DNA from: an uncultured Planctomycetota bacterium
GTDB lineage: Bacteria; Planctomycetota; Planctomycetia; Isosphaerales; Isosphaeraceae
Direction of reading: 5' to 3'
NCBI GenBank assembly: GCA_963737655.1
Contig: CAVTTN010000002.1
Location: 1,248,001-1,312,000, forward strand
Length of the DNA: 64,000 nt
Under the pieces are notes generated by a model, which was not told the origin of the DNA, made no database searches, and saw only the letters and a list, made by a program, of their open reading frames with translations. Positions 31,701 through 53,749 of this stretch are shown here, piece by piece. Every line of letters begins with the position of its first letter. The stretch's first letter is position 1. The position numbers were made by a program, and so were the translations under genes.

Positions 31701-34700
31701 CGATGAGCGGCCCGGCCACCCTGGTGGGCGGATCGGGCAACGTCCTCCTGTTCGGCGGCCTCGGCCCGGATACGCTGGCCGCGGGCGGCTCGGGCCAGGA
31801 TACGTTGGTCGGCGGCCCCGGCGCCGAGGTCCTCTTCGGCGGCTCGGGTCCGAACACGATCAGCGGTGGAGGCGGCGGCGACACGATCCAGGCCGGGGCC
31901 GGCCCGACCCTGGCGTTCTCCGGCGACCCGGGCAACCCGAACGTCGGCTCGCCCGGCGACGTCTCGCTCCTGTTCGGCGGCAGCGGCCCGGACACCCTCG
32001 GCGCCGGCTCGTTCACCCCGGGCCCGAACGGCTCGATGACGTTCACGCCGGGGCAGGGCACGGCCACCCTGGTCGGGGGCAGCGGCCCGGCCGTCCTCTT
32101 CGGCGGAGCCGGCCCGACGACCCTGATCGGCGGGACCGCCCAATCGACGCTCCACGGAGGGGCCGGGCCGAACCTCCTGTTCGGCGGGTCGGGCCAGGCC
32201 ACGCTCTATTCCGGCTCGCTCGGGTCGCCGAACAGCCCGCCCTCGACCCTCTTCGGCGGCTCCGGCAACGACATCCTCTTCGGCGGCCTCGGGCCCGACA
32301 CGCTGGAGGCCGGCTCGGGCAACTCCACCCTGAAGGGCGGGCCCGGCGGCCAGCTCCTCTTCGGCGGCTCGGGGAACGACTCGATCGTCTCGGGCTCGGC
32401 CCCCGGGAACTCCAACACCCTCTCCGGCGGCTCGGGCGCCACGATCCTCTTCGGAGGCATGGGCAACGACTCGGTCTACGGGGGCACCGGCCCGGCGACG
32501 CTCGTCGGCGGATCGGGCCACCAGGTCCTCTTCGGGGGGATCGGCAACGACTCGATCGTCTCCGGGTCGCTCGCCGGGGGAACCGCCACCCTGGCCGGCG
32601 GAGGAGGCTCGGACATCCTCTTCGGAGGCCAGGGGACCGAGACCCTCGGCGCCGGCTCGTTCTCGCCGAACGGGACGTTCACGCCGATGACCGGCAACAC
32701 GACGATCCAGGGAGGCTCGGGCCCGGCGATCCTCTTCGGCGGCCTGGGCAAGGACGACCTCTCGCTCGGGATGAACTCGCCGGGAGGGACGGTCGTCGGC
32801 GGCCTGGGCAATGACGTGATCACCGGCGGCCTCGGCAATGACTGCCTCGTCGGCGGGACCGGCGACGACTCGATCACCGGCAACGGCGGGAACGACGTCC
32901 TGATCGGCGGGGGCGGCTTCAACTGGGCCATCGAGGCGGGGAACTACGACTTCACGATCACGCCGACCAGCCTGGTCGGGACCGACTCCGGCCACGTGGC
33001 GAGGATCAACGACTCCCTCCAGCAGATCCAGGCCGTGGCGGTGACTTCGGGCAACTCGCCCCACACGCTCGACGCCTCGGCGTTCGCCGGGACCGCCTCG
33101 CTCTCCGCCGGCTCGGGCGATGACACCCTGATCGCCGGCTCCGGGCCCGACACCCTCGACGGGGGCGCCGGCAATAACTCGCTGGTGGCCGGCTCGGGAG
33201 ACGACACCTTCGCCGTCTCCGGCCTGAACCTGGGGACCGATACGATCGTCCACGGCTCGCCCAGCTTCGGCGTCGAGGCCCTGGACTTCTCCGGGTTCGG
33301 CGCGGCGGTGAATCTCGACCTGAGCAAGGCGGGCCCCCAGGTCGTCAGCCCCGGCAAGACGGTCGTCCTGCCCGATGGCGTATCGATCTCCCAGGCCCTG
33401 GGCTCGGACTACAACGATACGATCATCGGCAACGCGATGGACGACACCCTGATCGGCGGAGGCGGGTCGGACATCCTCGCCGCCGGGACGGGCTCGAGCA
33501 ACACGCTGATCGGCGGCAAGTTCCAGGTCGTCTTCCTCGACTTCGACACCAAGGACGGCGGCGACGCCTCGGCCTATGGCCTCCACGACTACACCACCGA
33601 CGAGCGCCAGGCGATCCTCCAGGGGATGATCCGCGACTACTCGGCCTTCTCCTACAGCTTCACGCTGACGAAGCCGACCGCCGGCGCGTTCACCACGCTC
33701 TACATCAACGACCCCGCGCTGATGGGCCTGGAAGGCGGGATCGGCGACGAGATCGACTGGAGGAACGTCGACCCGACGGACGACGCGTCGATCAACGTCA
33801 ACGGCCTGCTCGGCCACGCCGGGCAGCCGGCGGCGGACTCGGCCGACTTCATCGGGATGACGATCACCGTCTCGGCCCACGAGCTCGGCCACCTCCTGGG
33901 GCTGAAGCACTCCGACGCCTTCGGGCCGATCGGCTCGGGGATCTCGCCTCAGGTCAGCCCCACCGCGTTCGTCACCCAGGCGATCTTCGACGCCAACCCG
34001 GACGACCCGCCGATCCTCGTCCCCTACCTCGGCCTGACCGCCGCCGACGAGACGAACCTGCACATCATGGCCTCCGGCGCCGCCACCCACACCTCCGGGT
34101 TCGACTCGGTCAAGGCCACGTTCTTCGGCGAGCGCGAGGCGATCAAGCTCTCCTACGACGAGCAGGGCTCGCCCGTGGCCGAGACGAGCGCCTCCCACAA
34201 CGTCGTGACCGCCCCTCAGCCGATCGGCCTGTCCGCCGACGGCGAGCTCCAGGCCATCAACGTCCCGAACACCGACGTCTCCGGGATCTATGCCGGCCAG
34301 TCGTTCGACGTCCACGCCGGAGACGTGATCGGCCACATCGGCCTGGACGCCAAAGGCAACTCGGAGAGCGATTTCTACTCGTTCACCGCGATGGCCGGAG
34401 ACCTCCTCAACGCCGACGTCTACTCCGCCAGCCTGGCGAGGATCACCGACCCGATCGACTCGGTCCTCCGCCTCTACTACCAAGACCCCGTGACGATGCA
34501 GTGGGTCCTCGTCCCGTTCAACGCCGAGGCGAACCCCGGGAGCGTGGCGGTCAACGACGACGGGTTCCAGGGCAGCGATTCCAGCCTGATCGACGTCCCC
34601 CTGCCGACGACCGGCACGTACGTCCTTGAGGTCGCCACCTCGAGCCCGGCCGGCACCCACACGCACTACACCGGCGATTACGAGCTCTTCGCCTCCACCT

Positions 34701-37700
34701 TCCGCCTCGGGGCGAGCGAGGCGAAGGGGGACACGCTCTATAGCGGCTCGGGCGCCGACGTGGTGATCGCCGGCTCGAGCAACGACACGATCATCGCCCA
34801 GCCGAAGAAGGACGTGGTCCAGTACGGCTCCGGGGACGCGAACACCGTCGATAGCCTGCCCCCGCAGAACGTCTCGGCCGGGGCGAATCAGTCCGTGACC
34901 GAGGGGGGCACCGTCGGCCTCCTCGGCTCCTTCTTCGACCCGGCCGTCAACCACACCGATACCGTCCTCTGGCACCTGCTCTCCGGCCCGGCCGGCGCGC
35001 CTCTGCCCGATGCCTCGACGCTCGCCTACGGGTTCACGGCGACGAGGCCCGGCACCTACGTCCTCGACTTCAGCGTGAACGACGGCGTCGATGCCCCCGT
35101 GCATTCGTCGGTCACCATCACCGCCGCCGATACCCCGCCCGCGGTCACCTCGCCGATCCGACCCGGGCACCCCGAGGACGAGCAAACGACCGTCGAGGGC
35201 ACGACCCTCCAGGTCCATCTCGGCTCGTTCACCGACCCGGGCACGCTCGACGGCCCCTGGCAAGTCCTCGTCGCCTGGGGAGACGGCAAGACCGACTCGT
35301 TCTCGGAGGACTCGCCCGGTTCGCTCGGCACTTATGCACACACCTACGCCGATAACCTCCCCGGAAACGCCGACTACTCCGTGACGGTGACCGTCACCGA
35401 AGGCCCCGGCCTCTTCGGCACCGTCTCGTTCCCGGTCGGCGTGACCAACGCCCCGCCGGTCGTCGCCGCGATCTCCAACGTGGTCCAGCCCTATTCCGTC
35501 CCCCTGAGTGCCTCCGGCTCGTTCGCCGACCCCGGCGCCGATGCCCCCTGGGCCGGGACGGTCGATTACGGCGACGGCACGCCCGGCAACCCCGACATTC
35601 AGACCCTCACGATCGATCAGGCCACCAAGACGTTCTCCCTGAACAAGACCTACGCCAACCCCGGCATTTACACCGTCTCGGTGAACGTGACCGACAAGGA
35701 CGGAGCGGCCGGGACGACCAGCTTCACCGTGACGTCGGCCGGTCCCCCGGTCGTGACCTCGCCGATCCGACCCGGGCATCCCGAGGACAAGCAAACGACC
35801 GCCGAGGGCACGCCGCTTCAGGTCAACCTCGGCTCGTTCACCGACCCGCTGGGCGGAGACGGCCCGTGGACCGTCCTCATCGCCTGGGGAGACGGCAAGA
35901 CCGACACCATGCAGGAGGTTTCCGCCGGCTCTCTGGGCGCGGTCTATCACACGTATGCCGATAATTTCGCCAATAACGCCGACTACTCCGTGACCATCAC
36001 CGTCACGGGCTCCGATCACCTCCCCGGCTCGGTCTCGTTCCCGGTCGGCGTCACGAACGCCCCGCCGGCCGTCGCCTCGATCGCCAACGTCTCGCAGACC
36101 TTCCCGAACGCCCTGAGCGTCGCCGGCTCGTTCGCCGACCCCGGCGCCGATGCCCCCTGGGCCGGGACGGTCGATTACGGCGACGGCACCCCGCAGAACC
36201 CCGACGTCCAGCCCCTGACCCTCGATCAGGCCACCAAGACGTTCTCCCTGAACAAGACCTACGCCAACCCCGGCAACTACGCCGTCAAGGTGACGATCAC
36301 CGACAAGGACGGAGCGGCCGGGACGACCAGCTTCAGCGTCAACGAGTACACGCAGATCTCGGCCTCGCTCCGCACGCCCCCGGCGTACTCGGCCAACGGG
36401 ATCTCCACGCTCGGCGTGACGTTCTCCAACCCGATCAAGGCATCCAGCTTCACTCCGGCGGCCCTGACGATCACCCGAGAAGGCCAGCCGGTGACGATCC
36501 CGGGCTTGACGATCGCGCCGACCCCGGGAGACAACACCGGCACGCTGTTCACAATCTCGGGACTCGGCTCGGTCGGGTCTCCTCTGATCGAGGGGCGGTA
36601 CTCGATCACCCTGGACGCCTCGAAGGTCACCGACGCGACCGGCCATCCCGGCCTCGGCGTGACGGCCCCGGCCACGTTCCTCGTCGATCGCACGGCGCCG
36701 ACGAGCAAGGTCCAGGCGTTCGCCTCGCAGAAACAGGCCACGGAGACCTTCCCCGTGACCGTCACGTTCAGCGACCCGGCGCCGGCCTCCGGCGGGACGC
36801 CCTCGGGCGTGGCGTCGTACAACCTCTATTACGCGATCGACAACGGCGCGTTCTCCGAGTTGCAAAAGATCGTCGTGACGCCCAACCCGGTGACCGGCGT
36901 CCTGCCCACGACGGTCAACTTCACCGCGACGAGCGGCCACTCCTACAGCTTCCGGGCGGTCGCCACGGACCTCGCCGGGAACGTCGAGAGCAAGCCGGTC
37001 TCCTCGGAGGCGTTCGCCGTCGTCCCCGACCTCGACCCGCCCGCCACCACGGTCTCGGCGGTCGTCGGCAACGCTGCCGCCGGGTCGTTGACGGTCAGCT
37101 ACCAGGGCAGCGACCTGCCCGCGTCCAGCGCCGTCGGGATGGCCAGCTTCGAGCTGTTCGCGGTGGTGGACCTGGAGAAGAACCCCAACGCTCCGGCCGT
37201 GGACCTCGGCACCCTCGCGGCCAACAATCCTCTGGGCGTCTCGACCGGCCAGTACACCTATCCGGCCATCGCCGACGGCAATAACCACAGCTACCGCTTC
37301 TTCACCGTGGGCAAGGACAGGAACGGCAACGTCGAGGCCGCCCCGGCGAGCCTTTCGGCCCTGCCCTCCACCAGCCTGACGGTCCAGGCGGCCCCGCTGA
37401 AGGCCACCGATTTCTCGGTGGACCACGGCTCCAGCAACCGCTCGTTCGTCCGTTACGTGGACGTCGTCTTCAACGAATCCAACGCGACGAACTCCAACGT
37501 CCTGACCAACCTGATCGCCGGAGGCGCGCTGACCCTGACCAGGCACGCGATCACCGGGGTCGCCGTCGGAGACCCCTCGGTCGTCCTGGATAATGCCCAC
37601 GGCGTGAAGGTCTCGGCGATCGACCACACCATCGAGCTGGACTTCGGCGCCGGAGGCGTCGGCTCGGCCTTCGGCGTCGCCAACCCGGCGACCAACGCCG

Positions 37701-37981
37701 CGTCCGATGGCTATTACGAGATCGACATGAACCTCGGCGCGGGCCCGGTCACCAAGGCGTTCTTCTACCGCCTGATGGGCGATGTGAACGCCGACGGGAC
37801 CGTCGATACCAACGACGTGACGGTCATCAGCAACGCCCTCGGGTCGTCCTCGACGACCCAGATCCTCGCCGCCGACGCCGACGGCGACTCCGCCGTGACC
37901 GCCAACGACCGCAATATCGCGAGGAAGCAAGCCGGACAGAAGCTGGCCAGCGGCGAATTCAGCAAGCTCGGCCTGCAATGA
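1..37981 (+). CDS. Giant extracellular multidomain protein (beta-helix stalk with LamG, delta-60, PKD, FG-GAP, RTX, metalloprotease, dockerin-like domains); 5'-partial, about 12,660 aa in window, interrupted by 4 frameshifts
   Basis: Frame +1 is open from base 1 (IAIVGGSSNVFIGDLIGLN...). The repeat protein reads continuously across frame changes at ~1752 (+1 to +3), ~22842 (+3 to +2), ~24485 (+2 to +3) and ~31531 (+3 to +2), ending at TGA 37979-37981. Each junction is repaired by adding or removing one G. Confidence 0.85.
1752..22842 (+). CDS. Giant protein segment 2 (frame +3): beta-helix repeats with 5 inserted LamG domains and one unassigned domain
   Basis: Genuine part of ORF 798..22925, starting at GAIVPNVQAG. 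Module end GLGIDLGGDGVT...DPSGYGEG at ~3080-3440, then a new module start VTNTSNTGAGSLRQAI at ~3453. Confidence 0.9.
22841..24487 (+). CDS. Giant protein segment 3 (frame +2): 7 delta-60 repeats (beta-propeller), then beta-helix repeats
   Basis: ALDTSFNGTG, GSLDASFGVNG, GALDAGFGTGG, GSIDTSFGPNG, GLLDTTFGQSG, GTLDDTFGTNG and GSVDSSFGTNG, with (Q/L)PDGKIVVAG-type strands. ORF 22925..28306 loses the pattern after GIYLQG. Confidence 0.85.
24486..31532 (+). CDS. Giant protein segment 4 (frame +3): beta-helix end, PKD domain, 7 FG-GAP repeats, PKD-like domains, start of RTX-like repeats
   Basis: ORF 24468..31691. PKD motif LDGTGSSDPDNDPLTYSWNFGDG at ~27800-28050; seven FGx(S/A)(V/L)...(G/S)AP blades at ~28110-29250; W(G/K)DG PKD-like units at ~29300-30200; GGxGND repeats from ~30635. 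Confidence 0.88.
30987..31280 (+). repeat. 90-bp (30-aa) tandem repeats in the RTX-like region
   Basis: ttcggcgg(a/c)...aacgac recurs at 30987, 31077, 31167 and 31257 with high nucleotide similarity. Confidence 0.8.
31531..37981 (+). CDS. Giant protein segment 5 (frame +2): RTX-like repeats, metzincin protease, PPC domain, PKD-like repeats, FN3/Ig-like domains, dockerin-like C-terminus
   Basis: ORF 31688..37981. HELGHLLGLKH at 33878-33910; HIMAS Met-turn candidate at 34061; PPC-like ESDFYSFTAMAGD...NDD...GTYVLEV; C-terminal paired Ca-loops GDVNADGTVDTND and ADADGDSAVTAND. Confidence 0.88.
35144..36339 (+). repeat. Tandem duplication of a 609-bp (203-aa) two-PKD-like-domain unit
   Basis: VTSPIRPGHPED starts at 35144 and 35753; ggagcggccgggacgaccagcttca occurs at 35702 and 36311 (period 609). 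Confidence 0.9.
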
Positions 37982-38957
37982 GCCTGAGCCACCCCGGCTC
38001 GCTCCTCCTGGCGATCGCCTCCGCGTTCGGCGCGGCGGCGATCGTCCCGGTTTTCCGGTCGCGGGGCCCGAATCGATGGGCGACCGCGGCGGCCTGGTGC
38101 CTCGTCCCGGCCGTCTTCGCCTGCCCGTGGCTGATCCCGGCCGACGACGTGGCCTCTCGGGCGGCCTCGGCGGTCATTTCGACCGACCTCGCCTTGAAGA
38201 TGGTCGATTTCTTCCGGCAATGGGGCCGATTGCCCCCGGGCGAGGCCGTCCGCGAGTATTTCCGGTTGCTCGTCCCGCTGCCGGTCTTCGCGGTCCTCTA
38301 CCCCGACCTGAAGAAACGGCTCCGCCGGCCCGAAAACCCCTGGCCCCAGGTCGCCAAGGTCGTCGGAGGGCTGGCGGGGACGTGTTTCGGGGCCGTGTCG
38401 CTGGTCGTCCTCTCGAAAAATGAGACGCTCCGGGCCTATCCGGTCCTCGATCACGTCGTCAAGATCGTCCTCTTCGTCCCGACCATCGAATCCATCTCCG
38501 CGATGGCCAACGGGCTCGAACGGCTCGCCGGGTTCGACGTGCCGCCGATGCTGAGGCATCCGTTCGCGTCACGGACGGTCGGCGAGTTCTGGGCGAGGTA
38601 CAACGTCCGGGTCCACGGCTGGCTCGTCCGGCACGTGTTCCGCCCTCTCGGGGGACGTCGGCGCCGGCCCGGGCGGTCTGGCTGACTTTCCTCGTCAGCG
38701 GACTCCATCACGAACTGATGTTCGGGATGGCCACATCGCGATTCACGGGATATCAGCTCGCGTTTTTCCTCGCGCAGGCCCCGGCGGTCCTGGCCTCGGG
38801 CCGGGTGGAACGGCTGGCGAGGCGTCGAGGGGTCGCGGGGAAAGCCCTGGCCCACGGGTCGACGCTCGCGTTCCTGGCCGTCACGTCGGTCCTGTTCTTC
38901 CACGGCGTCGGCCTGGTGTTCCCGACGTTTTACGCGGGACGATCGCCCCGGCCATGA
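37978..38957 (+). CDS. MBOAT-family (wax-synthase-like) membrane-bound O-acyltransferase, frameshifted at ~38661
   Basis: Multiple TM segments and PFASRTVGEFWARYN motif. After a one-base shift the protein continues AVWLTFLVSGLHHELMFG (MBOAT catalytic His region) into ORF 38718..38957. Start overlaps the giant gene stop (ATGA). Confidence 0.8.
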
Positions 38958-45141: not shown

Positions 45142-47645
45142 TCAGGCATGCCCCTTCTCGACCAGGTCGATCAGCTCTCGGCCGGTCATCCGGTGGGCGG
45201 CGTCGTGGGGGCACGCGTAGACGCAGCTCGGCTCCCCGCCGAGGTCGTGGCAGAGGTCGCAGGCCGTGGCCTTCTGCTGGACCACCGCCATCATCTTCCC
45301 CGGCCGGTTCGGGTCGGGGATGCGCTCGCCGGTGGGGAACGGGTGCATGTTGATGTTGCCATACGGGCAATTCTCGGCGCACTTGCCGCAGCCGATGCAC
45401 CAGTCCTCGATGATGATCTCCAGCGAGTCCCTCCGCCGGATCGACCCCACCGGGCAGCCGACCATGCAGTACGGGTCCAGGCACGACCGGCACGAGCTGG
45501 CCACGAGGAACTTGTCGAACCTCAGCCCCTCGCGGATCAATCGCGTGACGCCGTCGTGGGCGTCGGCGCAGGCCTTGGTGCACTCGTCGCACCTCGTGCA
45601 TTTCTGGAGGTCCAGGACGAGCAGGCTGTTGGCATTCATGAGCCCCTGGCTGAGGAACTCGCCCAGGGGGAGGCTGTCGGCGCGCTCTGGGCCCGGGCGT
45701 TCTCCTCCAGCCTCTTGATCGCCTCGCGGACCAGGGGCTCGCGGACCAGGGGGAAGCGGGCGAGGAGGTCGCGGAAGTCGGCCGCGGTGATCTGGACGAG
45801 GTCCACGTGGTCCAGGGCCGAGCACGTCGCCGTCCTCAGGCCGGGAGGGGCGAGCGCGCGGACCTCGGCAACGTCGCTCATCAGCGCGATCTCGCCGAAG
45901 TAGCCGCCGGGCCCGACGTAGGTGAGGACGTGGTCTCCGCCGGGCCTCTTCTGCGAGACCTTCACGAACCCGGTGCGGACGAGGTAGAACCCGTCCTCCG
46001 AGCGATCCCCCTGGCGGAAGATGATCTCGCCCGGGTCGCGCCTGGCGAGCTTGACCGTCTTCCTCAGGTCGTCCACGAACCGGCCGAACTCCGCCTCGTC
46101 GTCGCGGATCGTCGAGAAGATGCCGACGCTCCTCAGGTGGCTGGAGATCGCCCGCTCCCGGTACTTCTCCTCCAGCTTCGCCCGGAACGCCCGGCTCCTC
46201 TGCATGATGTACAGGACGTTCCTCAGGAGCTCCAGGACGACGGTTTCCTCGGCCGCGCGGACGGTCGCCGAGCGGGGGTAGGAGTTCATGCAGGTCATCT
46301 CGCCGAAGATGTCGCCGGGCCCGAGGGTCGCGGCCGGCCTGGCGTAGGCCAGCGCCACCGGGGCGTCGATCGCGATGAACCCGCGGTCCCCCTCCCCCTC
46401 GCGCGTCTCCTCGTTGCGAGAGACCAGGTCCACCGTCAGCTTCTTCATCAGGCCGAACAGCCCGCGACCCTTCTTGCCCGCCCGGTTGCGGGCGTGACTC
46501 ATCGAGGCATTCAGATAGATATCCACCGATCCCGACTCGATCAGGAACGCCGACGAGCCGAACTCGCCTTCGCGGCAGATGATCTCGCCCTTCTTGAAGG
46601 TCCGGCGGACGATCGAGCTCTCGTTCCACCTCAGGAACGCCGGGGAGGAGCCGCGGAACGCCCGGCGGATGTCGTCGATCGGGTGGCGGATCAGCTCTTC
46701 GGCGCGGATCTTCTGAGGGGGCGGCGAGATGTCCTCCCACGGCTTGGCGACGACCGTGACCTTGTTCGTCAGGGCGCCCGTGGGGCAGGAGATCATGCAT
46801 TCGCCGCACGCCACGCACGACGAGTTGCCCATCGGGTCATCGAGATCGAAGGCGATCTTCGCCTGATAGCCCTTCTTCGCCCGGCCGATGACCTGGTTGT
46901 CGCGGATGTCGTTGCAGCCCCGGACGCAGCGATCGCAGAGGATGCAGGCGTCGTGATCGACGGCGATCACCAGCGAGGAATCGTCCTTGGGCCGGGGGGC
47001 CCGGCGGCTGAACCGGGGCGTCCCGACCTGGAATTTCGCCGCGAGCTCCTCCAGCTCGCAATCGCCGGTCTGCTTCTGCTTGGCGCAGGGGGTGGGGTGG
47101 TCGGCCATCAGCAATTCGGTGACGGTGTTGACGGCCTGGCGGACGGTCTCGGAGGTGGCCATCGTGGCCACTTCCATCGTGTCCTCGACCCGGTGCTGGC
47201 AGGCCGGCAGGAGCTTCCTCTCGGTCTGCATCTTGCCGCGCTTGACCTTCGAGATCTCGACCACGCAGACGCGGCAGACGGCCACCGGGTCCATGTGCTC
47301 GCGGTGGCAGAGGATCGGGATCGGGTTGACCGGGCTGCTGGAGGCGCGGAAGGTGGTCCCGGCGGCGAAGAGGAGGGCGGCGGCGTCGTAGATCGTCGTC
47401 GGCCGGGGGATCACCTTCCCCTCGGCGTCCTTGAGGAACGTCCCCTGGGCGTCGGTGGCGGGGACGGCCTTCTTCACGGTGATCGTCCGGCCGTCGATCT
47501 TGATCGTGACGTCGCGGTCGAGGTCCTCGGCGGTGACCTTGTCCATCCGCAGGAGGCGGCCGTCGAGGTCCCGGGAGAAGAGCCCTTCCTCCTCCTCGCG
47601 ACGGGCCACCGAGGCCGGCAGGGTGCTCATCGTCCCAACGCTCAT
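45142..47645 (-). CDS. NuoG/HydA-like N-terminal Fe-S module + two cyclic-nucleotide-binding domains + 4x[4Fe-4S] ferredoxin domain (~834 aa); frameshift at ~45688
   Basis: ILCH..VCRVC..LLPAC (2Fe-2S); CILCDRCVRGC and CVACGECMISCP; cNMP pockets FGEM..PRSAT and FGEI..LRTAT. After a one-base shift: CTRCDECTKAC, CRSCLDPYCMVGCP, CIGCGKCAENCP and CDLC..SCVYACP. Confidence 0.85.
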
Positions 47646-49432
47646 CGCTTCACCTCCAGGGTGCGGAGCGGGTCATCCCCGCCGACGGCCGGGCTCGGGG
47701 CGGGTCGGAACGCGGTGCGGACGTAGCCGGCCATGTCGTCTCGGAAGTTGCGGATCACCGAGCCCAGAGGATTCGCCGCGACCATCCCCAGGCCGCAGAT
47801 CGACGCCATCTCCAGGGCCTTGCGGAGGTCCGCGACCATGTCCTCCACCGGCTCCAGGCCCACCCCGTCGTACCGGCCCCCGAGGAGGTCCGTGCCGATC
47901 TCCACGAGCTTCTGCGAGCCGATCCGGCACGGGACGCACTTGCCGCACGACTCGTTGCGGAAGAACTCGGTGCAGTTCAACGCCTGGTCGGCCATGTCGG
48001 CCGAGTCTCCGTAGACGACCAATCCGCCGCCGAGCATCAGGCCGAAGTCGCGGAACGCCTGGAGGTCCAGGGGCAGGTCGAGGATGTTCAGGAAGGGCTT
48101 GTCGCCGGTCTTGCCCTGGGCCGACCTGGGGAGGTCGGCCAGGGGGATTCGCGTCGGGAGGAAGCCTCCCGAGGGGCCCGACGTCGCCACGGCCTTGAGC
48201 CTCTGGCCGGACCTCATCCCCCCGGCGTATTTGCCGATGAGCTGGCCGAGGGTCGTCCCGTTGGCGACCTCGTACACGCCCGGCCTCGCCACGTCGCCGG
48301 AGATCGAGAAGAACCGGGCCCCCTTGCAGCCGCCCGTGCCCAGGTCGCGATACCAGGCCCCTCCGTGGTGGTAGATCGCGGGGACCCAGGCGAACGTCTC
48401 GACGTTGGAAAGGAGCGTGGGCTTGTCGTACAGGCCGTTGGTCTCCAGCAGGGGCGGCTTGTTCCGGGGCTCGGCGCGCTTGTCCTCCATCGCCTCGATC
48501 AGGGCGCTCTGCTCCCCGCAGATGTAGCCTCCGGGGGAGACGAAGACCTCGATCGGGAACGATCGGCCCGTGCCGAGCAGGTCCTCGCCGCAGACGCCCA
48601 TCCGCTCGGCCCGGCCGATCGCGGCGTTCACGGCCTCGATCTGGGGCTCGTATTCGTGGCGGATGTAGACATAACCGCGCTCGGCCCCGGTGAGCAGCCC
48701 GGCGAGGATCACGCCTTCGAGGACGAGGTGGGGCGTCCTCAGCAATAATTCGCGGTCCTTGAAGGTGCCGGGCTCGCTCTCGTCGCCGTTGACGACGACG
48801 TACTTGCGGTCCCCTCGGGCCTGGCGGACGTCGTGCCACTTCTGGTGGGCCGGGACGCCCGCGCCGCCCATCCCTCGGAGGTCGGAGGCCTTGAGCTGCT
48901 CGACGAGGTTGTCGGCGTCCTTGGTCTCGACGAATTTGCGGGCGGCGGCGTATTCCTCCCGGCCTTCATACGGGTCGATCCGCCATCCGGTGCGGACCGG
49001 CTCGGCGAAGGTGGGGTCGATCCGGGAGAATGGGTCGGAGCGGCCGGTTATCGCGTCCCGGAGCAGGGCCCGGCACTCGGCCAGGGTCTTGGACCGATAG
49101 ACATGATGGCCCACCATCACCGCCGGAGCGGCGTCGCACTGGCCCAGGCACGACACCCCCTTGATCTCGACCGATTCCCCCCCGCCGAGCTCGGCGGCCA
49201 TCTCCTTCAAGGACCGGAGGTAGTCCGGGGCCCCTCGGAGGTGGCAGGCCATGTCCCGGCACACCAGGAACTCGACGTCCGGGGGCGGCTCCATCCGGTA
49301 GTGAGGGAAGCAGCTCGCCACCTCATGGAGCCGATGCAACGGCACGCTCAGCCGCTCCGAGAGCGCCTTGAGCTCCGAGGCGGGCAGGTAGCCGTTCTTC
49401 TTCTGGATCGCGTGGAGTTCTTGTTGGATCAT
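47642..49432 (-). CDS. NuoE-NuoF fusion (NAD(P)H diaphorase: 2Fe-2S, FMN/NAD(P)H site, 4Fe-4S)
   Basis: CRDMAC...CLGQC (NuoE); LRGMGGAG, NGDESEPG, YICGEQSALI, ESCGKCVPCR...ICGLG (NuoF). Alternative starts at 49447 and 49459. No other nuo genes are in the window. Confidence 0.92.
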   Translation of the reverse strand: MIQQELHAIQKKNGYLPASELKALSERLSVPLHRLHEVASCFPHYRMEPPPDVEFLVCRDMACHLRGAPDYLRSLKEMAAELGGGESVEIKGVSCLGQCDAAPAVMVGHHVYRSKTLAECRALLRDAITGRSDPFSRIDPTFAEPVRTGWRIDPYEGREEYAAARKFVETKDADNLVEQLKASDLRGMGGAGVPAHQKWHDVRQARGDRKYVVVNGDESEPGTFKDRELLLRTPHLVLEGVILAGLLTGAERGYVYIRHEYEPQIEAVNAAIGRAERMGVCGEDLLGTGRSFPIEVFVSPGGYICGEQSALIEAMEDKRAEPRNKPPLLETNGLYDKPTLLSNVETFAWVPAIYHHGGAWYRDLGTGGCKGARFFSISGDVARPGVYEVANGTTLGQLIGKYAGGMRSGQRLKAVATSGPSGGFLPTRIPLADLPRSAQGKTGDKPFLNILDLPLDLQAFRDFGLMLGGGLVVYGDSADMADQALNCTEFFRNESCGKCVPCRIGSQKLVEIGTDLLGGRYDGVGLEPVEDMVADLRKALEMASICGLGMVAANPLGSVIRNFRDDMAGYVRTAFRPAPSPAVGGDDPLRTLEVKR

Positions 49433-49522
49433 CTTTGTAGGGTGCATGAAATGCACCATCTGGAATTGGATTCCCCGGGCCGCCGTCTCGGAGGGAATCG
49501 GGATGGGCGCATTTCATGCACG

Positions 49523-51106
49523 TTACGGGGCACCCTTGAGGAACCTCGGGATGTCCAGCGCATCGACGTCCCTGGCCATCGACGGGCCGGGCTTGCGGTC
49601 GCCTCCGTGGTAGCGGTGGCATTCGGTGCAGGCGTGGCCGGCCCCTCCGACGGGCTGGCCCGAGGCGTCTCGGCCCGCCGGGGCGTGGCACGAGGCGCAC
49701 ACGTCCATCCTCGGCAGGAGGACGTCCGCGTTGGTCGTCGATCTCTCGAAGGCGTCCTCGTGGCACGACCGGCAGGAGACCGCCCGGTGCGCCGAGTGGT
49801 CGAAGTTCGCGTGCTCGAACCAGATCGTCGGCACGTAAGTCGGCTCGATCTGGACTCCGTCGAGAGACTGCGACAGGTCGGGCGAGGACTTGCGGCCGGC
49901 GGGGGTGTCGTAGCCGTGGCATTCGGTGCAGGTGTTGTGACCCGGTCCGAACAGGAGCTTCTCGGCCACGGCCACCCTCGCCGCGATCTCCTTCCTGGCC
50001 GAGACCTCGACGGCCGAGGACTTGCCCGGGAAGCCCCGGCGGCCGTCGTCGATCTTCCTGGCCAGGGCCGGGTCGCCCTCCAGGGTCAGGCCCAGCGAGA
50101 GGTTCGTCAGCGCCTCATGCAGGGCCGACGGTTGGAGGCGGTGAGGGACCGTCACGACCTTCGTGCCCTCGCCTTGGGGCATCGGCACGTTCAGCGCGTG
50201 GCAGGCCGCGCAATCGGCCTGATACGTGATCGGCTTGATATAGGCGCCGGTGCCGGCCAGCGGTTGATCGGCCAAAGCGAGCACGCCCGATCGGGACGAC
50301 GCCGAAGGCAGGGCGCCGTTGTCCAGCCGGTGGCACGAGGCGCATTCCAGTTGAACGGCGTCCTCGGGCTTCTTGCCCGGGGCGTACCGTTCCCTCGCCG
50401 TCGCCGACGTCAATTGCCCGGCCCGGAAGATCGGCGAGCCGCCCTGGACGGTGGTGAGGCCCGGGGCCATGTGCAAGGCGTGGTTGAACTTGAGCGTCCC
50501 GGGGTCGACCGCCGACTCCTTCCCCTGCCGGAACAGGGCGAAGGCCGGGTGATCGCCGGGGAACGAGGTCACCTTCGCCGCGAACGCGCTCTTTCCGGCC
50601 TTGGTGTGCGAGTCCAGCGCCTTGTGGCAGGAGGTGCAGTCCGAATCCTCCAGCTTCACCAGGGACGCCTCGCGCCCCCGGTGGTCGCGGTGGCAGCCGG
50701 CGCACGAGACGTCGCTCGGGTCGTTCGCCTGCTGGGCCTGGTGATGGATCTCGACCTGATGGCAGTCGAGGCACTTGAGGTCCGCGCCCTTCGTCGAGCC
50801 GCCGACGGCCTTCGTCCAGGAATCGTCGCTGATCGGATGGAAATCGACGTGGCATGCCTCGCACCGGGCGTCCCACGAGGCGTGGACGGCCGCCACCGGG
50901 CCGTGGGAGTAGCGCATCCGGGCCGAGTCGCTCTCGGCCAGGAGCCCGCGGCCGCCGGGCCTGAGCCCGCTGGCCCACCAGCCCAGGGCCGCGATCAGGG
51001 CGAGGAACGTCAGCGAGAGCTTCGCCCTCATCAGCCGGTCGGGCGTCTTGAAATAGTCCAGCGGGATTCGCGAGGCCCGCTGCTTGCCGGTCTGACGGTT
51101 CGCCAT
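49523..51106 (-). CDS. Membrane-anchored decaheme c-type cytochrome (cytochrome c3-like)
   Basis: N-terminal TM segment and ten CxxCH motifs: CEACH, CLDCH, CAGCH, CTSCH, CASCH, CAACH, CTECH, CRSCH, CASCH, CTECH. Confidence 0.92.
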   Translation of the reverse strand: MANRQTGKQRASRIPLDYFKTPDRLMRAKLSLTFLALIAALGWWASGLRPGGRGLLAESDSARMRYSHGPVAAVHASWDARCEACHVDFHPISDDSWTKAVGGSTKGADLKCLDCHQVEIHHQAQQANDPSDVSCAGCHRDHRGREASLVKLEDSDCTSCHKALDSHTKAGKSAFAAKVTSFPGDHPAFALFRQGKESAVDPGTLKFNHALHMAPGLTTVQGGSPIFRAGQLTSATARERYAPGKKPEDAVQLECASCHRLDNGALPSASSRSGVLALADQPLAGTGAYIKPITYQADCAACHALNVPMPQGEGTKVVTVPHRLQPSALHEALTNLSLGLTLEGDPALARKIDDGRRGFPGKSSAVEVSARKEIAARVAVAEKLLFGPGHNTCTECHGYDTPAGRKSSPDLSQSLDGVQIEPTYVPTIWFEHANFDHSAHRAVSCRSCHEDAFERSTTNADVLLPRMDVCASCHAPAGRDASGQPVGGAGHACTECHRYHGGDRKPGPSMARDVDALDIPRFLKGAP

Positions 51107-51134
51107 GAGCGGCCCTCGGACTGTCTCGATCCGG

Positions 51135-52112
51135 TCAGAGATAACGCAAGGCGACGACGATATGGACGAACATCAACGCGATCAGGGCCACCGACAGCGG
51201 CAGGTGGACGAGCAGCCAGTTGTGGAGCCAGAAGTGGAGCCGTTCCTGGCGGTCGAGCTGGCGGCGCTGCTCACACAGGCCCTCCATCGCGTCGATGGCC
51301 GGGTGGGCCCGGGGGTCCACCTTCGTCTTCAGGTCGGCGAACATGGCCGAGGCGCGGTCGGGGCGGCTCAGGGGCGAGCGCCCGAATCCTTCGTGATGCA
51401 GGAACGGCCCGGCCGTGGTCTCGAAGAACGATCGGAGGGCCTCGGAGTTGGCGATGGCCTCGCCGGCCGATCGCGTCTGGAGGACCTTGCCGCTGATCTT
51501 CCCCGCCGAGCGGACCGCGCCGACGACGAGATGGACCGTCCGGGGGTCGGCGTCGTCCTCGTCTTCCTCGGGGGTCGGCTTCCCGGGCACGGCCTCGGCC
51601 TTGCCGCAGGTGGCCTGGACCAGCCGGGTCGCTTCCTCGTGGTAGTGGCCGATGATCCGGGGGATCTGGGAGTGGATCGTCTCGGCCGGGATGTCCGCCA
51701 GCATGGTCTTCGGCAGGAGGTTCTGGAGCGCCAGGCCCCAGACCCCGCTGGCGATCACCACGAGGAACAATGCCATCAGGACCGTGCTGAGCGAGCCGCC
51801 CCACCGGAACCCGCTGTGGAGGACCAGGATCGGCAGGCTGAGCAGGCCGAGCCAGATGTGGGCCTTCATCCAGACCTTCACCCGCCCGAGCCGCCAGACC
51901 CTCAGCTTCTTCCTCGGCCAGAGGAGGAACTCGAACAGGCAGATCAGCCCGCCGATCACCCCGAAAGTGAACCCCGGCAGGCTCCCGCCGCCCAGGAAGC
52001 GAGACCGGGCGAGGCTCGCCACGGCGTACCAGAGCGTGGCGCCGAGGGTCGCCAGCGACGCGAATGCGAACCAGGCCCGATGGCCCTTCCAGTGCTCGGA
52101 ATCGATCAGCAT
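51135..52112 (-). CDS. Integral membrane protein, putative diheme cytochrome b (ferric-reductase-like TM domain)
   Basis: About 5 TM helices; two helices each carry H-x13-H (HIWLGLLSLPILVLH and HLPLSVALIALMFVH). Confidence 0.75.
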   Translation of the reverse strand: MLIDSEHWKGHRAWFAFASLATLGATLWYAVASLARSRFLGGGSLPGFTFGVIGGLICLFEFLLWPRKKLRVWRLGRVKVWMKAHIWLGLLSLPILVLHSGFRWGGSLSTVLMALFLVVIASGVWGLALQNLLPKTMLADIPAETIHSQIPRIIGHYHEEATRLVQATCGKAEAVPGKPTPEEDEDDADPRTVHLVVGAVRSAGKISGKVLQTRSAGEAIANSEALRSFFETTAGPFLHHEGFGRSPLSRPDRASAMFADLKTKVDPRAHPAIDAMEGLCEQRRQLDRQERLHFWLHNWLLVHLPLSVALIALMFVHIVVALRYL

Positions 52113-52321
52113 CGCCGGAAACGTCCCCCTCGGGGCGCCCTCGCCCCGTCATCGGGCCGTCGCGATCGGCAGGCCCCGCAGAACTCGCCCCCCGATCGTA
52201 GCGAAATTCCGGCGGAAGCCAACGGTTTACCCCCGGTTCCTTGATTTTCGGCCCGGAGGGGGGCATCTTCAGAGATATCGAACCGGCCGATGACGGCCGA
52301 GTCCCCGGGGAGGGTCCGGTC

Positions 52322-53749
52322 ATGAGGCGAGTCTCAACCGTCGGCGGCGCCCTGACCGGCGCCTCGGCCCTGGCCACGATCTGGCTGGTCTTCGGGCCGC
52401 GTCCCACCCCCGCGAGCCCTCCCCCGGTCGGACCGACGAACGCCCCGGTCGCCGCGGGCCCGAAATTCGTCCCCCGAGGGGCCGGCTCGTGCGCCGCCGC
52501 CGCCTGCCACGGCTCGGCCACGTCGCTACCGTCATTCTCGAACGTCTTCCGCAACGAGCACACTACCTGGATCACCCGAGACCCCCACTCGCGGGCCTAC
52601 GAAGTCCTCAGCGATGAGCGGTCGCTGTCGATCGCCCGGAACCTGGGCAACGGCCGACCGGGCGGCCGCGTGATTGCGCCGTCCGAAGACGCCCGCTGCC
52701 TGGCCTGCCACTCCACCCCTTCGGCGACGACCGCCGCCTTGGGCGACGCCGCGGACGTGATCCGTCGCGACGGCGTCGGGTGCGAGTCTTGCCACGGGCC
52801 CTCCAGCGGATGGCTCAGCGAGCACACCCGGGCCGATTTCGTGGGACTCTCCGGCGAGGTCAAGCACGACCAGTTCGGCCTGAACAACCTGAAAAACCCG
52901 ATCGTTCGCGCGAAGACCTGCACCGGCTGCCACGTCGGCGCCCCGGAGGGAGACGGCCTCCCCCTGCGAGACGTCAATCACGACCTGATCGCCGCCGGCC
53001 ACCCCCGGCTCGACTGGGAGTTCTCGGCCTACGTGGCGAACTACCCCAAGCACTGGACCACCGCGAACGACCCGCCGGACTGGGACGCCCGGCTCTGGAA
53101 GATCGGCCAGGTTGAGACCCTCCGCGCCGCGACCGACCTCCTCAACGCCCGGGCCGAGGCCGCCGAGGCCCACAAGGCCCCCTGGCCCGAATTCGCCGAA
53201 TATTCCTGCTACAGCTGCCACTTCGCCCTGAAGGACAAGCCGTTCAAGGTCGGCCTCGACCCGCAGACGCCCCCCGGGATGCCCGCCTGGGGCTCGTGGA
53301 CGACTCCTTTGATCCCGCCTCTCGCGAAGCTCTCCGCCGGACCCGCCCCATCGGCCGACGAGCGGCTGAATGACCTCCGAACCGTCATGAAGACCTTCGG
53401 CGCGGAGCCCAAGATCGCCGCCGAGAAGGCCCGATCGACCCGCGACGCCCTCTCGGCCTGGCTGGCGACCCTCCCGAACGCCCCGCTGACCGCCCCCGAG
53501 ATCAAGACGCTGATCGCCGCCCTCGACGCCAGGGACGCTGCCGGACGACTCGCGCTGGTCCACCGATGGGACTCGGCCGCGCAGGTCTATCTCGGCCTCG
53601 CCGCCCTGAATGTGTCGCTCCAGAAGCTCGACCCGAACGCCGTCGATCCCAAGCTCCGGGCCGAGCTGAAGGAACTCCTCGGAAAGCTCAGCTTCGCCAA
53701 GGGGTTCGACAGCCCCCGGGATTTCAACCCGTCGGCGCCGAACCGTTAG
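52322..53749 (+). CDS. Multiheme c-type cytochrome (c554-like N-terminal region), 4 CxxCH + 1 CX4CH
   Basis: N-terminal hydrophobic segment; CAAAACH, CLACH, CESCH, CTGCH, CYSCH. ATG at 52322 follows GGAGG. Confidence 0.88.
   Translation: MRRVSTVGGALTGASALATIWLVFGPRPTPASPPPVGPTNAPVAAGPKFVPRGAGSCAAAACHGSATSLPSFSNVFRNEHTTWITRDPHSRAYEVLSDERSLSIARNLGNGRPGGRVIAPSEDARCLACHSTPSATTAALGDAADVIRRDGVGCESCHGPSSGWLSEHTRADFVGLSGEVKHDQFGLNNLKNPIVRAKTCTGCHVGAPEGDGLPLRDVNHDLIAAGHPRLDWEFSAYVANYPKHWTTANDPPDWDARLWKIGQVETLRAATDLLNARAEAAEAHKAPWPEFAEYSCYSCHFALKDKPFKVGLDPQTPPGMPAWGSWTTPLIPPLAKLSAGPAPSADERLNDLRTVMKTFGAEPKIAAEKARSTRDALSAWLATLPNAPLTAPEIKTLIAALDARDAAGRLALVHRWDSAAQVYLGLAALNVSLQKLDPNAVDPKLRAELKELLGKLSFAKGFDSPRDFNPSAPNR

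Follow-up and report, generated by a model that had tools for sequence, protein, structure and literature searches.

What is the function of a gene cluster that combines an NADH-type flavoprotein, cyclic-nucleotide-binding domains, a membrane protein and multihaem cytochromes? This question is raised by a locus in the genome of an uncultured Planctomycetota bacterium of the Isosphaeraceae (genome G000; GenBank assembly GCA_963737655.1). The window analyzed here is a stretch of 64,000 nucleotides (nt) of contig CAVTTN010000002.1 (positions 1,248,001 to 1,312,000), with a G+C content of approximately 69% around the cluster, and coordinates refer to this window unless another sequence is named. 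An original prediction, made from the DNA letters alone, had proposed a wire from NAD(P)H to haem c that is gated by cyclic nucleotides and encoded by four co-oriented genes and one divergent cytochrome gene. The map of open reading frames (ORFs) confirms this layout, with four tightly packed genes on the minus strand and a fifth gene diverging from them on the plus strand. The minus-strand genes encode, in order, an inner-membrane protein (IMP) of 325 aa, a decahaem cytochrome c, a NuoE-NuoF fusion (NuoEF) and an iron-sulfur (Fe-S) protein with two cyclic nucleotide-binding (cNMP) domains. The plus-strand gene encodes a pentahaem cytochrome. Judged by synteny, the five genes are a conserved unit. 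Their sequences suggest that the cluster may be an outward, cNMP-modulated transmembrane electron outlet for NADH, a reading to which we give an even chance of being correct.

The linkage of the five genes was examined in other genomes. A pattern scan with one genome per species retrieved at least 628 loci, confirmed by tblastn, for the fused form of the Fe-S/cNMP protein. The best 80 of these were kept and gave 68 distinct loci from metagenome-assembled genomes (MAGs) and isolates of Planctomycetota and Acidobacteriota; they are the loci most similar to the query and not a random sample. Six window proteins were searched, and presence was counted only in the 42 of the 68 loci flanked by 6 kb or more on each side. 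The NuoEF gene is present in 41 of the 42, the IMP and decahaem genes in 38 each and the pentahaem gene in 35. As the original prediction had expected, the genes co-occur, all five being found together at 33 of these loci across both phyla. Ten distinct arrangements were observed. The arrangement pentahaem(-) / NuoEF / Fe-S / IMP / decahaem was seen most often, at 19 loci, and the window order, pentahaem(-) / IMP / decahaem / NuoEF / Fe-S, was found at 6 loci. A chance neighbourhood was rejected because of these synteny counts, with all five genes at 33 of 42 loci in two phyla and in differing orders. Four full-flank loci have no adjacent IMP gene. Three of these genomes carry it elsewhere, at distances of approximately 13 kb and approximately 26 kb in two of them and on a differently numbered contig in the third, and the fourth is a 3.9-Mb MAG.

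The 3922 ORFs of the 68 loci were also clustered all against all. No conserved hydrogenase, molybdoenzyme, porin or cyclase family was found in them, and no other shared family beyond lineage-specific neighbours. The original remark that the wire has no hydrogenase or molybdopterin catalytic subunit thus holds for conserved neighbours across these loci. Among 31 relatives, all nine genomes with a cNMP-Fer4-type protein also have IMP, two more have weak or partial IMP matches only and 20 have neither; the counts are descriptive only, since kin are not independent. All five genes are also carried by a cultured species, Tautonia sociabilis GM2012.

The IMP gene (51135..52112, minus strand) encodes a protein with five predicted helices. 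Two pairs of histidines, H85-x13-H99 and H303-x13-H317, lie on two of them, and W81, H85, H99, S122, G123, G126, W299, H303 and H317 are invariant in 34 IMP homologues. The two H-x13-H helices read from the sequence alone are therefore confirmed, with all four His invariant. The AlphaFold2 (AF2) model (pLDDT 84.1, pTM 0.75) shows five long helices and a soluble insert of approximately 160 residues between helices 4 and 5. We place this insert in the cytoplasm by the positive-inside rule, because the loop before helix 3 of the predicted structure is rich in Lys and Arg. In the available text of He et al. (2017; PMC5566968), the conserved IMP of the PCC3 and PCC4 gene clusters is described as a five-helix protein that carries SGxxG on helix 4 and a W-x3-H-x13-H motif on each of helices 3 and 5, and is likened to a ferric reductase domain. 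The window protein shows the same signature in its sequence and AF2 model, with five helices, SGxxG and W-x3-H-x13-H twice, and is assigned to the PtdF/PCC4-IMP type.

An exhaustive structural aligner placed the IMP model nearest to CybB (5oc0; Z 10.1, root-mean-square deviation (rmsd) 3.3, 128 aligned), a designed two-haem protein (7ah0; Z 10.0), STEAP1 (6y9b; Z 9.4, rmsd 4.6, 143 aligned), STEAP4 (6hcy; Z 9.0), Dcytb (5zlg; Z 8.8) and cytochrome b561 (4o6y; Z 8.3), all of these listed matches being below the level trusted for helical bundles. One neighbour cluster in the Atlas is automatically named 'ferric reductase like transmembrane component'. Like NOX, FRE, STEAP and MsrQ proteins and CybB/cytochrome b561, IMP has, on each of two transmembrane helices, a pair of His with a spacing of 13 residues. 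This pattern would suit a stack of two b haems taking electrons across the membrane from a cytoplasmic donor linked to NAD(P)H. IMP is thus likely a di-haem b, ferric-reductase-like transmembrane electron carrier. It differs from ferric-reductase-domain proteins in having five helices instead of six, a cytoplasmic insert of approximately 160 residues as predicted above and no match to PF01794. Its predicted donor is an Fe-S protein and not a fused FNR-like domain, and its predicted acceptor is a multihaem cytochrome.

The likeness to CybB also bears on a different reading, according to which the cluster comprises two half-systems that meet at the quinone pool. IMP would then be a cytochrome b that reacts with quinone. 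NuoEF, the Fe-S protein and IMP would form a non-pumping NADH:quinone oxidoreductase, and IMP and the cytochromes a quinol:cytochrome c oxidoreductase, so that electrons would not pass directly through the membrane. CybB, the best single structural neighbour of IMP, reacts with quinone, and four-cluster ferredoxins of the DmsB/HydN type usually feed quinone-reactive anchors. A quinone-active cytochrome b role was also suggested in the available text of He et al. (PMC5566968). However, W-x3-H-x13-H twice, on helices 3 and 5, is an arrangement of the NOX/FRE/STEAP type, which passes electrons straight across the membrane, and no quinone-site motif was identified, no search having been aimed at one. 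We consider the quinone-linked reading clearly unlikely, and IMP is treated below as a carrier that would pass electrons directly to the cytochromes.

The NuoE-NuoF fusion (47642..49459, minus strand) begins 63 nt downstream of the decahaem gene. The fusion had been recognized from the sequence alone and was confirmed by Pfam, which finds the domains 2Fe-2S_thioredx, Complex1_51K, SLBB and NADH_4Fe-4S in the 605-aa protein, corresponding to a [2Fe-2S] cluster, a flavin mononucleotide (FMN)/NADH site and a [4Fe-4S] cluster. Among solved structures, HydB-type subunits (E 6.5e-90) and Nqo1 (E 1.2e-82) come closest to this protein, and the glycine-rich, acidic and CxxCxxC motifs of NuoF align with those of HydB (7t2r_B). 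The next ORF (669 aa; 45636..47645, minus strand) is coupled to NuoEF by an ATGA at 47642-47645, its ATG overlapping the NuoEF stop codon as originally noted. It contains the Pfam domains Fer2_4, NADH-G_4Fe-4S_3, Fer4_Nqo3 and cNMP_binding (PF00027, E 1.9e-35). A HoxU/NuoG-N-like module with a [2Fe-2S] cluster, a degenerate His site and two [4Fe-4S] clusters is thus followed by two cNMP domains, as had been proposed. The HydN/DmsB-like ferredoxin domain with four [4Fe-4S] clusters (Fer4_11 and related domains) forms the C-terminal part of the fused family form; here it is a separate ORF of 165 codons (45142..45639, minus strand) that starts at the family's conserved Met. NCBIfam scores are 362.5 bits against a cut-off of 558.65 for nuoF_fam, 131.3 against 333 for HoxU and 107.7 against 470 for NuoG. 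Because these scores lie far below the equivalog cut-offs, the NuoEF and NuoG-N parts are regarded as relatives, not members, of the complex I, Hox and Hyd families. With regard to a possible hydrogenase or formate dehydrogenase elsewhere in the genome that the module might serve, the two other NuoG-like genes of G000 lie in open frames of 1183 and 1076 aa with N-terminal modules of their own.

Conservation of the cluster ligands was scored over 16 diverse fused homologues, with numbering according to the fused protein P0004. The [2Fe-2S] pattern (C108, C119, C122, C144), the ligands of the His site (H178, C182, C191) and two [4Fe-4S] sets (C229, C232, C235, C239 and C272, C275, C278, C282) are invariant in all 16. 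The 16 Cys of the ferredoxin domain are invariant in the same sequences and also in a set of 34. The His-ligated site, aligned to that of NiFe-HydA (7t2r_A), reads H-x3-C-x8-C and has lost its second Cys, with Gln at this position in the window (approximately 47090-47130, minus strand; residues ~179-192 of the 669-aa protein), and this degenerate form is kept across the family. In the cNMP domains, G440, E441, R450, S451 and A452 and G576, E577, R596 and A598 are invariant in all 16 sequences. They belong to the motif FGE...R[ST]A, which we take to be the phosphate-binding cassette with its ribose- and phosphate-contacting residues. In the fused family form, the two cNMP domains stand between two Fe-S segments. 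The proposal that cNMP sensors sit in the middle of the Fe-S path is thus borne out for the domain order.

The same domains allow the view that the cNMP/Fe-S protein mainly senses or regulates, responding to redox state and cyclic nucleotides, and is not the main electron path. Regulation is the classic role of cNMP domains, the His-ligated cluster site is degenerate, and an NDH-2-like flavoprotein beside a related cluster (locus L087, described below) has a cNMP domain too. Against this view, thirty Cys/His cluster ligands are invariant in 16 diverse sequences, the gene is linked to NuoEF at 41 of 42 loci and translationally coupled to it, and Pfam found no output domain such as a helix-turn-helix or a kinase. 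A mainly regulatory role seems very improbable to us, and we return to the Fe-S protein as a putative part of the wire.

The decahaem gene (49523..51106, minus strand) begins 28 nt downstream of the IMP gene. Its 527-aa product is PtdG-like and has 10 CXXCH motifs and a single N-terminal hydrophobic segment at residues 30-48, in agreement with the anchored 10-haem cytochrome c that had been predicted. Pfam assigns Cytochrome_C7, CIII and c3_2 domains, and the PDB sequence search gave marginal matches only (best E 0.023). The divergent gene (52241..53749, plus strand; likely start 52322) also proved to encode a five-haem cytochrome, with four CXXCH motifs and one CX4CH. Across 27 sequences, neither the five motifs nor another five His vary. 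Searched as a profile, the family matches cytochrome c554 (1bvb) at E 1.1e-11 and NrfA at E 4.4e-5, and the N-terminal part is described as c554-like. In the AF2 model (pLDDT 74.8), the C-terminal domain (53048-53746, plus strand) is helical and holds the fifth haem motif. Foldseek found nothing in the PDB for the whole model (best E 0.25). The structures nearest to the C-terminal domain are EfeM (7q1g, Z 8.9), EfeO (7wgu, Z 8.8) and the imelysin-like proteins 3pf0 (Z 8.2) and 4ecg (Z 6.8), all sub-threshold, and these four matches stand above the next row at Z 6.3. Profile and Pfam searches gave no sequence support for the EfeM/EfeO likeness, which we regard, from the predicted structure, as a lead towards metal chemistry and nothing more. 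In a pentahaem homologue at another locus (L037 10372-11724, minus strand), one haem motif is interrupted by a TGA codon in frame (C-N-TGA-C-H), for which an error of sequencing, pseudogene decay or recoding could account.

The core of this cluster is already in print, as a bioinformatic description of uncharacterized systems called PCC4 and ptd. According to the available text of He et al. (2017; PMC5566968), PCC4 comprises a porin, periplasmic cytochromes with 4, 5 and 10 haems and the conserved IMP, and its subgroup II, which includes Planctomycetes, has a pfam13247 Fe-S gene upstream of the IMP gene. The accessible part of a preprint (bioRxiv 10.1101/2023.11.21.568154) describes an operon ptdABCDEFG that encodes a pentahaem cytochrome (PtdA), a porin (PtdB), an oxidoreductase with flavin adenine dinucleotide (FAD) and NAD(P) (PtdC), a tetrahaem cytochrome (PtdD), a cNMP-binding 4Fe-4S protein (PtdE), a ferric-reductase-like IMP (PtdF) and a decahaem cytochrome (PtdG), and calls its function 'completely unknown'. 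Compared by these descriptions, the window shares with PCC4/ptd the cNMP Fe-S protein, IMP, the periplasmic decahaem and pentahaem cytochromes and an NAD(P)-linked redox protein. Differences are also apparent from the same descriptions. In the window, NuoE-NuoF and a HoxU/NuoG-N module, the latter fused to the N-terminus of the cNMP Fe-S protein, stand in place of PtdC, and counterparts of the porin PtdB and the tetrahaem PtdD are neither conserved in the 68 clustered loci nor found among the window genes scanned. In addition, cytochrome c552 (5ze8), cited there for PtdA, matches the profile of the window pentahaem only marginally (E 0.16). The NuoEF/NuoG-N variant and a modular exchange of donors were not found in the literature as far as searched, and a word search of the accessible text of a preprint on extracellular electron transfer in peat (10.64898/2026.05.27.727921) gave nothing on this cluster. 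The original statement that no characterized complex has this layout therefore stands for the literature as far as searched, while the core itself had been predicted before.

Differences also separate the cluster from better known modules. The HoxEFU diaphorase, the NuoEFG N-module of complex I, HydBC-type subunits of bifurcating hydrogenases and FdsABG likewise combine a NuoE-type [2Fe-2S] cluster, a NuoF-type FMN/NADH site with a [4Fe-4S] cluster, and a [2Fe-2S] cluster with two [4Fe-4S] clusters. In contrast to them, the window set has no conserved hydrogenase, formate dehydrogenase or complex I partner in the 68 loci. Its His site lacks one Cys, and the fused protein continues with two cNMP domains and a four-cluster ferredoxin. 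Among membrane systems of sulfate reducers, Tmc and Hmc connect Fe-S proteins of the cytoplasm with multihaem cytochromes of the periplasm by way of a cytochrome b in the membrane. In metal reducers, CymA, ImcH and CbcL supply electrons to the periplasmic cytochromes that serve extracellular respiration. These systems, and DsrMKJOP of sulfate reducers, use HdrD-like or quinol-dependent modules. To our knowledge, none of Tmc, Hmc, DsrMKJOP, CymA, ImcH and CbcL contains an NADH flavoprotein or cNMP domains.

To describe the partners of IMP more evenly, IMP was searched in an even sample of Planctomycetota and was detected in 22 of 251 genomes (E ≤1e-15). The neighbourhoods of 20 IMP loci from 19 of these 22 genomes were then searched. 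Four of the 20 have NuoEF and the NuoG-N-extended protein, as in the window. Twelve have a shorter cNMP-Fer4 protein, which matches the window protein from approximately residue 309 on, and no NuoEF within 10 kb. The remaining four have IMP and cytochromes with no adjacent Fe-S gene. At one locus (L130), the order is FNR-like protein (FAD_binding_6, NAD_binding_1, Fer2) / tetrahaem / cNMP-Fer4 / IMP / decahaem / Cys-rich protein / pentahaem, which contains the ptdC-D-E-F-G order. Its IMP has both W-x3-H-x13-H motifs, its Fer4 domain shares 46% identity with that of the window (E 3.6e-39), and its IMP and decahaem are homologues as well. At another locus (L087, in the closed genome G023), an NDH-2-like flavoprotein of 592 aa with its own cNMP domain and then a GAF-class III cyclase of 633 aa (13595-17408) lie directly beside the cNMP-Fer4, IMP and decahaem genes. 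A cyclase adjoins the core at L114 as well. By gene content, the core consists of the cNMP-Fer4 protein, the di-haem IMP and the decahaem cytochrome, and three unrelated NAD(P)H flavoproteins are attached to it, the FNR-like and NDH-2-like cases being one locus each. This modular core offers a testable framework for the uncharacterized PCC4/ptd clusters. Other genes beside such clusters were also observed. Between the decahaem and pentahaem genes of L130 (12625-14100, plus strand), a 492-aa protein full of CxxC pairs has no Pfam match, and LVIVD-repeat proteins of 1180 and 1263 aa are encoded beside short-form clusters at L122 (8873-12412, minus strand) and L124 (13414-17202, minus strand).

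From these parts, an outward path can be proposed. NADH would be oxidized at the FMN of NuoE-NuoF, and electrons would pass through the HoxU/NuoG-N-like clusters of the Fe-S/cNMP protein, past the segment with the two cNMP domains and into the four [4Fe-4S] clusters. The Fe-S protein would dock on IMP, and its electrons would cross the membrane through the two b haems to the periplasmic decahaem cytochrome, then to the pentahaem cytochrome and a final acceptor. NADH has a potential of about -320 mV, which makes reduction of Fe-S clusters, b haems and c haems downhill, and outward electrons run with the membrane potential. Such flow would not conserve energy but would cost the cell reducing power as well as membrane potential. 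Because it would spend the membrane potential in this way, the module is more readily understood as a redox outlet under the control of cyclic AMP or cyclic GMP (cAMP/cGMP). As for the complete wire from NAD(P)H to haem c of the original prediction, the cofactor-binding residues are all conserved and the genes form one conserved unit, and the part that did not hold in this assembly is the Fe-S protein, which is split here. The interpretation is well supported by sequence as a genetic and cofactor inventory; as a mechanism it is a proposal.

The direction could also be inward. Fe(II), Mn(II) or reduced humics would then deliver electrons to the cytochromes, and these would travel through IMP and the Fe-S proteins to NAD+ or quinone. 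Modules of the NuoEF/HoxEFU type are reversible in known enzymes, and the C-terminal domain of the pentahaem is nearest to the iron-binding EfeM and EfeO (Z 8.2-8.9 including an imelysin-like protein, sub-threshold). On the other side, reduction of NAD+ from donors near or above 0 V would be strongly uphill and against the membrane potential, the gene set has no proton-coupling or bifurcating partner, and no porin is conserved in the 68 loci or present among the window genes scanned. We consider an inward conduit quite improbable. The outward direction is favoured because it would be downhill and the inward one uphill on both counts, and because the gene set has no coupling module.

Several observations weigh against the outward NADH outlet. 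PCC4 was found in Fe(II) oxidizers, and He et al. proposed for it, in the text available, the inward direction, with Fe(II) oxidation feeding the quinone pool (PMC5566968). No family match to IMP was found in Pfam or NCBIfam, and Pfam gave none even at E 10, the ferric reductase family PF01794 included; Foldseek found nothing for the IMP model in the PDB (best E 0.22), and the structural matches end at Z 10.1, under the reliable level for helical bundles. Because the His-ligated site is without one Cys, the Fe-S chain may differ from that of HoxU or NuoG. Twelve of the 20 sampled planctomycete clusters lack an NAD(P)H module next to the core, so that, by gene content, NADH need not be the general donor. 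Of 23 loci screened with a cyclase query, only 2 have a cyclase beside the core, and one further match is weak and partial. The presence of two class III cyclase genes in G000 speaks for cyclic-nucleotide control, but neither lies in the window, and the nearest, the better-scoring domain (G000:C2:1220613-1221098), is approximately 72 kb upstream of the cluster. Finally, the reading frames of the central gene differ in the deposited sequence, as described below.

The role of the cyclic nucleotides in the outward reading is tentative. Gating in the literal sense is doubtful. More specifically, binding of a cyclic nucleotide might shift the spacing of the clusters and so switch tunnelling, making the system a second-messenger exhaust valve from NADH to multihaem cytochromes that is independent of quinone; we think this unlikely. 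Because the pentahaem carries an EfeM/EfeO-like domain in its model, the output of such a valve could be the cAMP-switched reduction of iron or another metal. If the outlet does exist, it would provide a direct NADH route to periplasmic multihaem cytochromes that bypasses the quinone pool, and it would be the first case in which a second-messenger sensor forms part of the electron-transfer wire itself. The family is large, since at least 628 species-level genomes encode the NuoG-N/cNMP/Fer4 protein, including common soil Acidobacteriota and Planctomycetota. Because the family is large and its carriers are abundant, its function bears on how heterotrophs of soil and water dispose of reducing power and interact with iron, manganese and humics.

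The original prediction had read the Fe-S/cNMP gene as a single protein ending in the four-cluster ferredoxin. All the domains are present, but they are split over two ORFs. In this assembly, the NuoG-like/cNMP part (669 aa) and the 4x[4Fe-4S] part (165 aa) are in different reading frames because of a -1 frameshift near 45685. The approximate site (45680..45690, minus strand) falls in the linker that joins the ferredoxin domain to the second cNMP domain. In the protein alignment, one frame of the window agrees with the fused family as far as '...KRLEENARAQ', and the other frame agrees with it from '...ADSLPLGEFLSQGLMNAN...' on. The final ~16 residues of the 669-aa ORF are out of frame, and its TGA stop codon shares bases with the ATG at which the ferredoxin ORF starts. 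The 119 other listed homologues (714-1065 aa) all have the ferredoxin domains in the same protein as the C-terminal domain. DNA alignment of the linker shows that the window is 1 nt shorter than the intact sequence of the same-genus genome G001, and that another genome of the genus, G002, is 1 nt longer within the same stretch of ~12 nt. A programmed frameshift was rejected because G002 is shifted oppositely at the same place and G001 is in frame.

The frameshift is probably an assembly error. A second gene in the window, MBOAT-like (37978-38957), is split as well, near 38650. Its first piece (37978-38682, plus strand) aligns with residues 10-228 of a homologue of 308 aa that is intact in G008, and the second piece (38601-38954), in another frame, matches residues 212-305 (43% identity, E 2e-15). 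The junction (~38645-38655) contains a run of five G and needs one more base to restore the frame, which looks like a long-read assembly error. G000 is only 87.7% complete in 3 contigs, and short-read relatives in the family reach 96-99%. The few-contig genome G002 (40 contigs, 71% complete) shows the opposite-sign indel in the same stretch (within L074 3313-3555), the ferredoxin region of its database protein P0003 (843 aa) is translated in a wrong frame, and its IMP gene is also split over two frames (G002:C15:1005320-1006283). The short-read genome G001 is intact, and so are the remaining genes of the window cluster. A genuine mutation would leave the module inactive in this genome, with the Fe-S protein a pseudogene or at best a two-piece protein. 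The differing frames of the deposited sequence speak for it, the linker site is not a long homopolymer, and the indel error rate is not high, because 35 kb of giant ORFs elsewhere in the window are uninterrupted. A real frameshift is in our view somewhat unlikely. Even then, a two-chain form is conceivable, because the break lies at a domain boundary with an ATGA junction at the conserved Met, where re-initiation could give a working Fe-S protein of two chains. We continue to regard the fused protein, interrupted by an assembly error, as the probable form in this genome. A search found no sequencing run, of RNA or otherwise, that contains this genome, the 7 listed runs matching at most 0.07 of the sampled words.

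The operon and the pentahaem gene are separated by a divergent intergenic region (52113..52240). A promoter scan, which does not cover planctomycete promoters, found no sigma-70-type promoter, and a terminator scan found 1 terminator-like site where 3.4 were expected. The genes in the scanned flanks of the window are unrelated: one is for a Uma2-like protein, one for a methyltransferase, and the products of two match no Pfam family; neighbouring ORFs of 707, 577 and 710 aa were named by eye only. Elsewhere in the window are three uninterrupted giant ORFs of 7375, 2407 and 2097 aa (798-22925, 24468-31691 and 31688-37981, all on the plus strand). Laminin_G_3, beta-helix/NosD, PKD, FG-GAP, RTX and dockerin domains occur in them, and their products are presumably very large proteins that are secreted or displayed at the cell surface.

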